Shown here piece by piece: positions 17,043-63,984 of a stretch of DNA of 64,000 nt. Each line of letters starts with the position of its first letter. Positions within the stretch are counted from its first letter, which is position 1. Position numbers and translations under genes: made by a program. The stretch is from Eledone cirrhosa (taxonomy: Eukaryota). Location: contig OZ024759.1 in assembly GCA_964016885.1 (NCBI GenBank), positions 22,196,001-22,260,000 of the forward strand, given 5' to 3'. The notes under the pieces are model-generated. The model saw only the letters and a list, made by a program, of their open reading frames with translations, was not told where the DNA came from and did no database searches.

Positions 17043-17085
17043 ACCGAGAACAAATGTTTCACCTTATGCGGATCATCAGCTCAGT
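17043..17085 (-). ncRNA. Minimal type I hammerhead ribozyme motif
   Basis: Minus strand: ACUGAG-CUGAUGA-UCCGCAUAAGGU-GAAA-CAUUUG-UU-CUCGGU. 6-bp stem I, minimal stems II and III, GUU site. Confidence 0.7.
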
Positions 17086-17397
17086 CTGAGTGAAGTTGTA
17101 TGGAAAAAGAAAAACAACTGTATCAATACGCATGCACAGAAATGGTCACTTCTCCTAGGGGTAGGGGATATAATCCTACGGATATAACCCTCCAGTGTTC
17201 TACTATATATGTGTGTGTTTATACATACATATATATATATATATATATATACACATACATACATAAGGGTAGAACTGGTGGTTCTGGTAGACAAATCATG
17301 ATGTAAGAAATCAATCAAAGTACTCAACGTTATGCAAGTCATCTATCGTAGATGTGATGGATGTCCAGTGGTTGGAGCAGGAGCGGAGTAAAGTATT

Positions 17398-17907
17398 TAT
17401 AAAATGATAGCAGAAGGCTGGACTGGAAGATATGCTTTAAAATTTTTATTCCATGAAATGACTATACATATTCCCATGGCCCACCTCCGCCATCCAAATA
17501 CGATGCAAGACAGGATGATCTCATCAGGTAAATTTGACAGAATTACACACCAGGGTTACATTGAACACAAACTTATCATGGAAGATAGGGAAAAGAGAAT
17601 AGGAAATTGAAAAATGAAAGTTCGACTTTGAGACTACCTGTAAAAAAAAAACTTGTACTGTGAGAAAGGGGCCCCTGAGTTGAATTTTCATTTTTCAATT
17701 TCCTATTCTCTTTTCCCTATCTTCCATGATAAGTTTGGGCTTAATGTAACCCTTTTATGTAATTCTGTCGAAGTTACCTGATGAGATCGCCCTGTCTTGC
17801 ATCTTATTTGGATGACAACGCAGGGCCATGGAAATACGTATAGTGACTTCAAGGAATTAATATTGTAAAGCATATTTTCCAGTCTGGCCTTCTGTTGTTG
17901 TTTTATA
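17398..17907. mobile_element. Diverged inverted repeat (about 225-bp arms) carrying a hammerhead; Penelope-like inverted pLTR remnant
   Basis: Arms are imperfect reverse complements. The right arm has an intact core and the left arm has GGAA in place of GAAA. Confidence 0.7.
17770..17850 (+). ncRNA. Type I hammerhead ribozyme motif
   Basis: GAAGUUAC-CUGAUGA-[GAUCGCCCUG...CAGGGCCAUG]-GAAA-UACGUA-UA-GUGACUUC. 8-bp stem I, palindromic stem III. Confidence 0.75.
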
Positions 17908-17984
17908 TATATATCTATATATAAAACGGTCGGAGCTCAGCTGTTAGGGTCCTGACTATTTTCCTATATATATATATCTTAGTC

Positions 17985-18400
17985 TTAGGTTCTTCTGCAC
18001 CTTTTGATTAGTCGCCAACGATCACGATCAACGGCAGCATTTTCGCGTCCGTCCCAAGTGATGTTGGCTGCCAGCAGGTTTTTTTGGAATGTTCGTCGCC
18101 AGGTGATCATGGGGCAACCCCGCTTTCGTTTACCGCCAAGTAGAGTCCAGTTCATCATTGTTTTCAAGTGACATTCGTTGGGCAGAATATGGCCAGCCAG
18201 GCACCGTCCACGGCTCGCCTCTCCACAGGATTTCCTCGTTTTGCACTCGTTCGCACCAAGACACAAAAGGATCCGTTCCAGGCACTGTTGGTGGAATGTG
18301 ATCAGCCGTCTCTCTATCTTAGCCATGCTCTTCCAGGTTTCGTTCGTGTATTAAGGGGACGTTACTCTATTGGAGACATAACGTGCCTAGAGTATGCTGA
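17985..18400 (-). mobile_element. RTE-like LINE 3' fragment; other RTE-like fragments at about 23940-24260, 28030-28310, 33570-33725, 39850-40225, 51300-51830, 52915-53420
   Basis: FHQQCLERIL...GHIL...GKRKRGCPMITWRRT...AVDRDRWR, typical of the RTE ORF C-terminus. Confidence 0.75.
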
Positions 18401-60567: not shown

Positions 60568-61231
60568 CCTGTGAATTGGAATGACTATTTTAACACATCT
60601 CCCATGCTATCCTCCAGGGGTCACACTTTCTCTATTCTATCTGCTGGAACCATGAGGTGACATACACCTGGGGTTCTGTACATCAGTGAGTGTCCACCCA
60701 CACAGTCTAGGCCTGTGTGGGTGTTCGGTTACTTCTATCATTGAGGTAATCAAATGCTTGGATAACATCCATGAACTTGGTTGGTCTCGCTTGGGGGTCC
60801 ATCCATATCATTTGGAGACGGTTAGTTCTGATAAGGACACCCTGAAGGGTGTGTCTAAGGGCTCTGGCCTCACAGCCCTCCCAGGAATATGTGAGCAAAG
60901 AAGAAGAGATATATCATCATCATTGGCGTCATCATCCCCATCAGTACTATCACATTCAGCGTCATCATCCCTATCATCATCATCATCATCATCACTGTTT
61001 TACCTCTATTTTCCATGCTTGCATGGGTTTGACAGGTTCTTAAATTCTGTGTTTAGGCAGACCAGATGACTGTCATGCTCATACATTCCATTTTGACATG
61101 GTTTCTATTTCAACAACAGGGCCCCACTTCCTTACACCATTCAAGGTATATATGGGGGGGGGGGTCTTTTCATAGGACCACCACTAGCATCTGACACAGG
61201 GGACTGGATAATATTTTCGTGGTACCAACAC

Positions 61232-61955
61232 TTCCACTTAACAGAGTGGACTGGGTATAATTTACCATGACACCAGCATTACCACCTTATAGAGTGTACT
61301 GAGTGCATTTTATTGTGCCACCTGCACTAACACTTTACAGAGTGGATTGGGTATAATTTACCATGACACCAGCATTACCACCTTATAGAGTTTACTGAGT
61401 GCATTTTATTGTGCCACCTGCACTAACACTTTACAGAGTGGACTGGGTATAATTTACCATGACACCAGCATTACCACCTTATAGAGTTTACTGGGTGCAT
61501 TTTATTGTGCCACCTGCACTAACACTTTACAGAGTGGACTGGGTATAATTTACCATGACACCATCATTACCACCTTATAGAGTGTACTGAGTGCATTTTA
61601 TTGTGCCACCTGCACTAACACTTTACAGAGTGGACTGGGTATAATTTACCATGACACCAGCATTACCACCTTATAGAGTGTACTGAGTGCATTTTATTGT
61701 GCCACCTGCACTAACACTTTACAGAGTGGACTGGGTATAATTTACCATGACACCAGCATTACCACCTTATAGAGTGTACTGAGTGCATTTTATTGTGCCA
61801 CCTGCACTAACACTTTACAGAGTGGACTGGGTATAATTTACCATGACACCAGCATTACCACCTTATAGAGTTTACTGAGTGCATTTTATTGTGTCACCAG
61901 CATTACCACCCTATAGAGTGAACTGGGCAAATTTTATCACGGCACCTGCACTAAC
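61232..61955. repeat. 96-bp tandem repeat (dimer of two related 48-mers), about 7.5 copies
   Basis: tttaccatgacaccagc recurs at 61261, 61357, etc. Both halves contain c(c/t)tta(c/t)agagt..actg.gt. Confidence 0.93.
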
Positions 61956-62800
61956 AAGTTTCAACACTAGAGGAATTGTATCCTGGTCAGGATGTAAGGG
62001 TGGTGATAGGGAATGAGGGAGAACATGAGGTGGGGTGAATTTATGAGAAGTGAGTAATGCTTGGCACTATTGTGATATCCAGACGCGTGCTCCCTTCCGC
62101 CTCATTTATATCACTTGATATATATATATATATATATATATATATATATAATATATATATATATATATATATATATATATATATATGTGTGTGTGTAGAT
62201 GTATATATATATGTGTAGATGTATATATATATACACACACACACATGTATATACATATATATACACACACACATATATATATATATATATATACACATAC
62301 ATACATACACATATATATATACATACATACACACACACATATATACACACACACACACACACACATATATATATGTATATATATATATAGATCGATAGAT
62401 AGATACACATATACATATATATATATATATATATATATATATATATATGCATGTATACATACATGTATATATATATATATATAGACACACACAGACACAT
62501 ACAGGCATTAATAGCCTGTTATCTGACACTACGTAAACATGACAACATGTTGTTCTTTAATATCAGATTTTGTCAAATCATTTATCTGCAGCAATATACG
62601 CATATACATTCAATTATAAACACACACATACTTCCCTTATCTGTCTGTTTTTCTCTTTATAAAACACACACACACACATATATATATATATAAGTTAAAA
62701 CAATGAAATAAAAAAATCAAGTCATTAGAGATATACTTCACTGCTTTACGATCGTTTCTTGTGTGTATATATATATATATATATATATATTTATATATAT

Positions 62801-63984
62801 ATTTAATACAATAACAGAGATAGTTTAAAGCTAAACTCTGACTGGTAACCATCTCACTCAACAAACATTAGGTTATATTAAAATATAAACCCAATTTAAG
62901 TGTTTGGGGTGCTAACAATATGTATAATGTGGAAAAACCAGTTGTATTATTTTATGAGATATAATTAAAGTTAAAGTATATCTCTCTTTCCAAACAATTG
63001 TTTCATTATAAGTTTTCTACAAGTTTGGGAGAATATTTCCAGTTTATGTAGAAGCCTAATATATATTCATGTAAGAATATATTTAGGTGGGCACTTATAA
63101 ATCGTCAGTGGAAGCCCATTAAACATTGATATAAGAAAACAAATTTCTTACCGCTGTCAAAAATCATGTCCGTACAGTAGCTCTCTCTCACCTCGAATGA
63201 CCGCCAAATTTGAAATTCCAGCAGTTTTTGACTGAGGAAGTATCATAGTGACACGAAGCGGGAAGGGGAGACAACCCACGAAATGAGGAAAAAATAATAT
63301 ACACGCGGGTTAATTAGTTTTTTTGAAAACATTATCAATCCGACGTGTTTAAGAACTCAATTGAAAATAAAAAAATAAATATATGCTTGTATAAATTACA
63401 CACGCATATAGATATTTTCTTAGGCTAAATCAGAAGTTGTACCCGAATAAGAACCGCTTCTCATAACCGCAGTAAATGCAGAAAGTTATGCTATAAAGGG
63501 CAAATGGGAATATAATTCTCCGGCCGAATTAAGAGTAAAATATAAAACACACGCGGGTTAATTAGTTATTTCAAAACCAATATCAATTCCTCGTGTAAAG
63601 AACTCAATTAATAAAAGAAAATAAATACATATATGCGTGTAATTATATACGTAGGCATATATATATATATTTTCTTAGGCTAAAAAACAGAGAAGTTACA
63701 ACCAAAAAAAGCCACAATATTTCACAACGGTAATAAATACGGAAAGTCAAATTCATAAGGTACCTGGAAATAAACACCTCTGGCCAATCAAGAGTAAATA
63801 TTTAATACAATAACAGAGATAGTTTAAAGCTAAACTCTGACTGGTAACCATCTCACTCAACAAACATTAGGTTATATTAAAATATAAACCCAATTTAAGT
63901 GTTTGGGGTGCTAACAATATGTATAATGTGGGAAAACCAGTTGTATTATTTTATGAGATATAATTAAAGTTAAAGTATATCTCT
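62801..63984 (-). mobile_element. Non-coding element with 185-bp direct terminal repeats (999-bp period) and a hammerhead, in (TA)n
   Basis: 62801-62985 is repeated at 63800-63984. Internal diverged duplication of about 250 bp (63290-63540 vs 63545-63800). Confidence 0.75.
62988..63113 (-). ncRNA. Type I hammerhead ribozyme motif with branched stem II
   Basis: UUCCA-CUGACGA-U[UUAUAAGU...two hairpins...ACUUAUAA]U-GAAA-CAAUUG-UU-UGGAA. Confidence 0.75.

Follow-up and report, generated by a model that had tools for sequence, protein, structure and literature searches.

Nine hammerhead ribozyme motifs lie in the window analysed here, a stretch of 64,000 nucleotides (nt) from Eledone cirrhosa (assembly GCA_964016885.1, contig OZ024759.1, positions 22,196,001 to 22,260,000). 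An earlier note on this DNA had listed all nine, and eight are matched by a strict type I descriptor (stem I of at least 4–5 base pairs (bp), core, stem II of at least 2 bp that may be mismatched at 10.1-11.1, GAAA, a palindromic insert and UH). Lowering the stem I threshold to 2 bp, a setting run on the real sequence only, adds the ninth, a family f motif, and returns exactly nine. Sixty global and 60 local dinucleotide shuffles of the window per setting gave a mean of 0.02–0.2 motifs and a maximum of two. The nine coordinates mark the ends of stem I, the open end of a type I hammerhead. Stem I measures 5–8 bp (2 bp in family f), the cleavage triplets are GUU, AUA and GUA, and the six stem III palindromes listed in the note are all present. 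Its claim that every motif keeps the core holds for eight, which read CUGANGA, but the motif at 45073(+) has UUGAGAA, with U3 and A8 swapped. Further candidate cores at 5391, 14848, 16656, 28409, 28991, 31941 and 63232 failed the descriptor. The one at 14848 (-) belongs to a short tandem repeat in which CTGATGA runs directly into AA, without stem II.

The nine motifs represent seven insertions of six families, named a, b, c, e, f and i. Family a occurs once, at 17043..17085 (-), with a 6-bp stem I, U.U at 10.1-11.1, a 2-bp stem II and the near-palindrome CAUUUG; its predicted cut falls after 17049 (GUU), and the element ends in (TA)n 34 nt downstream. The genome holds 771 matches to it at no more than one mismatch. 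At three other loci (L191, L205 and L213), family a forms very short inverted insertions whose two cores are only 10–12 nt apart. Family b lies at 17770..17850 (+), with an 8-bp stem I, a copy-specific G.G at 10.1-11.1 (17785/17830), C.C at 10.4-11.4, a 46-nt stem-loop II and a predicted cut after 17842 (AUA); 35 genome matches fit its tight pattern. The inverted arm of the same insertion carries a decayed tenth motif at ~17455..17535 (-), with GGAA for GAAA. The note had described about six unrelated families. Six is correct, but b shares its architecture with e, of which it is an old relative.

Families c and i form gene-less units. The family c insertion (18530..19870, -) consists of ~558-nt tandem units and an inverted arm, truncated at its 5' end, at 19690-19869 (+) with a 126-nt tail; (TA)n borders the insertion on either side. 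Two of the nine motifs are units of this one array. The hammerhead at 18604..18685 (-) has C.A at 10.1-11.1, a 51-nt stem-loop II, an 8-nt palindrome and a predicted cut after 18609 (GUU), and the second unit carries another at 19162..19243 (-). A 25-mer of this family has 4,343 exact genome matches. The family i insertion (62796..63984, -) is a ~990-nt unit that has a terminal repeat of 190 nt and, internally, a duplication of 250 nt. Its hammerhead at 62988..63113 (-) has U.U at 10.1-11.1, a 97-nt branched stem-loop II, the palindrome CAAUUG and a predicted cut after 62993 (GUU), and the family has 2,549 genome matches.

Families e and f complete the set. A single e motif at 21058..21123 (-) has an 8-bp stem I, A-U at 10.1-11.1, C.C at 10.4-11.4 and a predicted cut after 21066 (AUA), with a partial upstream repeat at 21234-21288. 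Two more form one inverted insertion at ~45840-46390, whose long-ended arm bears a hammerhead at 45978..46043 (-) and whose short-ended arm bears one at 46275..46340 (+). The family f insertion (44900..45330, +), with its right end placed by the family's long end, appears to be the 5'-truncated 3' end of a Hydra-clade Penelope-like element (PLE) and is 98% identical over 266 nt to locus L335. Its hammerhead, at 45074..45108 (+), has G-C at 10.1-11.1, a 4-bp stem II and a predicted cut after 45106 (GUA). The U3-A8 core and 2-bp stem I are fixed in the family, which varies at N7 and has 1,935 genome matches. The note had placed all motifs in or beside (TA)n-flanked inserts, but family f ends in a short TATATA, and the nearest (TA)5 is 666 nt away.

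The same kind of motif pervades the genome. From 22 large contigs of the 2,995,841,428-base assembly we took 99 stretches of 10 kb, each placed at a round coordinate, and scanned them with a perfect palindrome required. This gave 105 motifs in 48 of the 99 stretches, against zero or one in each of ten shuffled sets of these 990 kb; the 105 include six probably false matches from a simple satellite (L303), and tandem arrays add up to 14 per stretch. Extrapolation gives 3.2x10^5 motifs genome-wide (bootstrap 2.2-4.4x10^5). A tight setting (56 motifs) gives 1.7x10^5 (1.1-2.3) and a loose one (118) 3.5x10^5. Compared with the sampled density, the window's eight motifs per 64 kb make it average for this genome. 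Seven whole-genome patterns, four of which span only part of the motif, sum to 97,709 matches and give a floor; the e-group pattern accounts for 49,131 and a short stem II group for 38,945. The 105 sampled motifs fall into 25 families (Chao1 estimate 36). Across all examined loci, which overlap and were partly chosen for motifs, 398 matches (L303 left out) form 41 families, 23 of them in at least two loci. Most of the ~3x10^5 copies are probably silent stubs. Among short-stem families absent from the window, L062 and L082, together with the matches to the 38,945-match pattern, represent tandem retrozymes, mostly with U.U at 10.1-11.1; their units measure 310 and ~420-490 nt.

Chance matching in AT-rich, microsatellite-rich DNA has virtually no probability as an explanation of these numbers. 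Six false-looking matches did come from L303, but the shuffled samples and the reversed-pattern controls, which returned zero in all seven genome scans, refute a chance origin. The window motifs, as judged from their sequence, are real hammerhead-shaped RNA elements with predicted cleavage. Rfam does not see them: its hammerhead families gave no match at the gathering threshold in the window and seven loci (134 kb), and at E<=1 no hammerhead stood among the 150 of 167 matches listed. The scan output was microsatellite-driven microRNA noise only.

The first pair of stem II is a family trait. The note had reported four families with a mismatch at 10.1-11.1 (U.U twice, G.G and C.A), and all are present in the window, but G.G is peculiar to one copy: among 20 distinct 46-nt stem II sequences of family b, 16 have G.U and one has G.G. 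U.U and C.A are family states. Across the 23 multi-locus families the position is U.U in seven, A-U in five, G-C in five, C.A in three, G.U in two and U-A in one. Within families it switches on both sides, from U.U to C.A, G-C or A-U, and thus behaves as a pair position rather than as decay. We rejected, for most families, the reading that two bases were inserted before a conserved G-C, because the next pair is G-C only in a minority (c among them) and because families of the same length swap U.U, C.A, A-U and G-C at this site.

A second irregularity, at 10.4-11.4, is more constant. In 91 of 92 distinct AUA-type sequences this position is unpaired (C.C in 65, C.U in 22), whereas pairs 10.1-10.3 and 10.5-10.7 hold in 77-92 of the 92 with several pair types, pair 10.2 being partly fixed by the descriptor. 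By hand count, 14 of 41 families have a pyrimidine-pyrimidine (Y.Y) mismatch at 10.4-11.4 as their family state, compared with one at 10.3 and three at 10.5, with the proviso that descent is shared and some singletons may belong to one family. The mismatch may mark a tertiary or protein contact. C.Y at this position is absent from the portions compared of two published motif tables, both built with descriptors that need perfect stems, and the literature searched, which excluded subscription papers, held no report of these stem II pairs. Covariation, which the note had proposed as a check, is evident across AUA-type sequences but weak within family i.

Published descriptors miss these motifs mainly for reasons other than the first-pair mismatch, contrary to the note. 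The descriptor for minimal hammerhead ribozymes (min-HHRs) of Cervera and de la Pena 2014 allows stem II one additional base on each side, yet it recovers none of the nine window motifs and five in 990 kb, since its stem III insert is limited to 2 nt and its loop II to no more than 10 nt. Stem III inserts here span 4–8 nt, and stem-loop II reaches 117 nt.

The autonomous carriers are, by motif comparison only, Hydra-clade PLEs. The sampled stretches are rich in Penelope-like open reading frames (ORFs). Two of these, of 830 and 821 codons (L145 and L338), when read by eye, combine a reverse transcriptase (RT) with a GIY-YIG endonuclease at the C terminus and show RWK-like, DKT, CxCX5C, CxxC and CxH motifs, in agreement with the Hydra motifs listed and aligned in the part of Craig et al. 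(PMC8557442) compared here. The window itself holds no remnant of a Hydra ORF. A large protein search found 18 unnamed relatives at 29-38% identity, and a search of solved structures returned no relative. In the nearest Atlas clusters, a lead only, PF26215, GIY-YIG and RVT_1 occur at shares of 18-100%. One Hydra-type element is young: at least 150 matches share 99-100% identity over 161 amino acids. Intact 830-codon ORFs repeat in tandem every 6.67 kb, and a C.A-type hammerhead precedes each of them by a few hundred bases. Non-coding DNA makes up ~4 kb of this 6.67-kb unit (L145-L146, L151-L152); its many internal (TA)n tracts are copied along with the unit, and the element may thereby spread its own targets.

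Linkage to these ORFs suggests that families a, e and f are pseudo-long-terminal-repeat ends of Hydra-clade elements. In family f, 12 of 20 loci have the endonuclease end of a Hydra ORF on the same strand, 265-404 nt upstream (mirror control, 0). For an e-subfamily with the palindrome UGCGCA, it lies ~1 kb upstream in 4 of 13 loci (mirror control, 0). Motifs of e type show a hammerhead-ORF-hammerhead layout in L327-L330. In L330 the motifs on either side of a broken Hydra ORF are of the window's own e type, and the copy at 21058 is 82% like these flanking repeats. Family a motifs in L331 and L335 follow, on the same strand, remnants of Hydra ORFs. Families c and i form tandem units (558 nt and ~740/990-nt spacing) with one type I hammerhead each and neither an ORF nor a PLE protein match. 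Since b, c and i lack DNA similarity to the eight autonomous elements compared, their mobiliser is judged from the common target and end structure, by which c and i likely borrow a Penelope enzyme. A 1,217-codon PLE of another clade was rejected as a partner of the window motifs: it has its own, different min-HHR-like motif and no DNA similarity to the window families. This young element (L148-L150) has a long Asn-rich insert, and its motif lies between tandem ORFs.

Insertion sites and ends follow one scheme. Of 102 motifs, 64 have a (TA)5 tract no more than 200 nt downstream of the cut site, compared with 21% of random positions. The 3' ends after the cut site are fixed: 34-36 and ~102 nt in family a, 48-50 and 144 nt in e, 60-65 and 220-225 nt in f, and 183-193 nt in i. 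Among 18 distinct c insertions, all 12 with two arms have one short and one long end, as does the window copy, which fits the two initiation sites from which reverse transcription of the anole Penelope element is reported to start. Tandem and inverted copies with a one-sided tail occur in (TA)n, as in Hydra-clade PLEs. The note's broader proposal, a large, diverse and under-annotated repertoire spread by TA-targeting PLE-like elements, is thus borne out by ~3x10^5 motifs, zero Rfam matches, (TA)n ends and Hydra ORF links.

Together, these results favour, at a probability of roughly 80%, a model in which type I folds sit in Penelope terminal repeats and in gene-less borrowers, would cleave only as dimers, and are copied into (TA)n by a Penelope RT-endonuclease. 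Element RNA would be transcribed, and dimers paired through the stem III palindrome would cleave after H17, possibly with protein assistance; tandem units would supply the dimer partner in cis. Cleavage would trim element RNA out of read-through transcripts, and in families c and i it would release unit-length RNA that may circularise, as in mussel. After nicking (TA)n, the Hydra enzyme would begin reverse transcription downstream of the hammerhead, at either of two sites. Copying would usually abort early and leave only a short stub that carries the hammerhead, in many cases joined to an inverted second arm, which is why stubs would dominate. Predicted energies agree with a dimer: folding stem III into a hairpin within one monomer is unfavourable (+1.5 to +4.7 kcal/mol), and its self-duplex is favourable (-2.2 to -9.8). 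Across copies, change falls on free positions and spares the core. By hand count, 73 of 78 listed one-mismatch copies of family a differ at N7 or in loop II, and 94 of 100 listed family i copies are perfectly palindromic at the wildcard positions, including a two-base switch.

Several results weigh against this model. None of the predicted monomer minimum-energy folds is a hammerhead, and the constrained fold lies 2.5-9.4 kcal/mol higher. In family i, only 2 of 36 predicted pairs change on both sides. Pfam finds no family in three PLE proteins. Among the sequencing runs listed for this stretch none is of RNA, and the four compared with it are contigs of unrecorded kind. Over the 1.5 kb upstream, a Hydra ORF end is present in none of 30 a loci and none of 13 window-type e loci, and the a and e links rest on L330, L331 and L335, loci picked for spacing; the corresponding counts are 0 of 25 for b, 0 of 25 for i and 1 of 30 for c. 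Families b, c and i share no DNA similarity with the eight autonomous elements tested. The published anole Penelope hammerhead cuts only with protein and is dispensable for insertion in vitro.

That last result also supports an unlikely alternative, in which the fold is kept as a platform for Penelope protein binding or folding, serving template choice and the start of reverse transcription, while self-cleavage is weak or incidental and the odd stem II pairs are protein contacts. The reported low activity of min-HHRs in vitro, stem-loops of up to 117 nt and the nearly invariant C.Y at 10.4-11.4 all fit such a role. Against it, the catalytic core is kept across 41 families, U3 and A8 compensate each other in 4 of 23 multi-locus families, and nearly all families have an NUH triplet with a purine before U. 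Because the descriptor demands the core, only the compensation and the triplet count as independent. Far less probable still is that the motifs are dead relics and the mismatches decay. This does describe single copies, such as the G.G at 17785/17830, the GGAA arm and all of family b, and most copies are truncated stubs. But in 10 of 23 multi-locus families U.U or C.A is the family state, C.A occurs in the young element with intact ORFs, and 10.1-11.1 switches on both sides within families. Decay is thereby refuted for the family states, and the dimer-cleaving Penelope model stands as the preferred account.

More tentatively, and with the odds against it, the largest group could be an unrecognised structural subtype within the densest hammerhead repertoire described (~1 per 10 kb). 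Its stem II would have a three-pair base whose first pair exchanges freely among U.U, C.A, G.U and A-U, and an obligate C.C or C.U would make a tertiary or Penelope-protein contact that compensates for the lost G10.1-C11.1. With palindromes common to tens of thousands of copies, dimers formed between copies in octopod transcripts could also cut host pre-mRNAs. Such cleavage predicts a depletion of sense-strand motifs in introns.

The elements belong to a known kind, compared here with portions of the published work. Hydra-clade PLEs, including Hydra-1_Obim of Octopus bimaculoides, were described by Craig et al. 2021 (PMC8557442), with the same RT and C-terminal GIY-YIG, DKT and CxCX5C motifs, (TA)n targets, and tandem or inverted copies tailed on one end. 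File S2 of that paper has 7-8-nt near-palindromic stem III sequences and, by hand count, U.U at the stem II base in 14 of 25 Hydra families, tabulated in the part compared without comment, along with C.A in one Chara element. There the clade is small, with elements under ~3 kb and a short perfect stem II. Here we find units of up to 6.67 kb, stem-loop II of up to 117 nt, C.Y at 10.4-11.4, many gene-less derivatives and copy numbers on the 10^5 scale.

PLE min-HHRs (PMC4209133) share the type I topology, a palindromic stem III and the dimer model, and likewise occur as solo stubs and close inverted pairs, in many families per genome and with a U3-A8 variant. Unlike the motifs here, they have a highly conserved G10.1-C11.1, one extra 5' base and a 0-4-nt insert. 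The window motifs thus resemble min-HHRs in predicted working and differ in subtype. Metazoan non-LTR retrozymes (PMC7229834; 10.64898/2026.07.22.740005), read as non-autonomous Penelope derivatives, likewise lack genes and repeat in tandem, with one type I hammerhead per unit. Their units span ~170-400 nt, compared with 558 and ~990 nt and a long stem-loop II here, and their circular RNA has been demonstrated, whereas ours are known from genome sequence. Perreault et al. 2011 (PMC3088659) reported U10.1-U11.1 as the best-tolerated mispair and 10-bp palindromic stem III dimers in Aedes. U.U was a rare variant there; here it is the commonest family state and exchanges with C.A. Further comparison covered portions of Frangieh 2024, Weinberg 2019 and Roberts 2023.

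Scale, diversity and a candidate stem II subtype with conserved C.Y at 10.4-11.4 are new here; U.U, long palindromes, TA targeting and the octopus Hydra element were already published. Short-stem-III hammerheads of Penelope-like elements that cleave as dimers were reportedly described by Lunse and co-workers in 2017, and that work may already contain the stem II features called unreported above. The estimate of ~3x10^5 is 20-30 times the highest per-genome counts compared, ~9,000 min-HHRs in Xenopus tropicalis (PMC4209133) and 14,255 retrozymes in axolotl, with ~5,000 in mussel (PMC7229834; 10.64898/2026.07.22.740005). No cephalopod is mentioned in the compared parts of the two retrozyme papers, nor does the word 'ribozyme' occur in those of a 2026 Octopus vulgaris repeat annotation, and the literature searched, subscription papers excluded, holds no cephalopod hammerhead census. 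Where the published descriptor finds ~5 motifs per Mb and Rfam none, we find ~100 per Mb. In this genome the Hydra clade turns from a minor group into a major component. Its young intact elements with a defined (TA)n target offer material for asking what Penelope hammerheads do, and the independent families, dozens in number, amount to a natural mutagenesis series at the stem II base.

The rest of the window contains ordinary genes and repeats. An exon of an OGG1-type 8-oxoguanine glycosylase gene (PF07934, PF00730) lies at 52179-52883 (-), and some of the motifs may sit in introns of this gene. A short frame at ~15050-15178 (+), for which Pfam returned nothing, resembles what we take to be the last exon of a SCAMP gene. 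A 260-codon open frame at 22824-23606 (-) has ordinary composition and no Pfam family. By resemblance, three stretches are presumably 3' fragments of long interspersed nuclear elements, of RTE type at 17985-18350 (-), R4/Dong at 32815-33135 (+) and CR1/L2 at 55358-55921 (-). Positions 47900-49700 hold ~1.7 kb of nearly pure AT microsatellite-like repeat.

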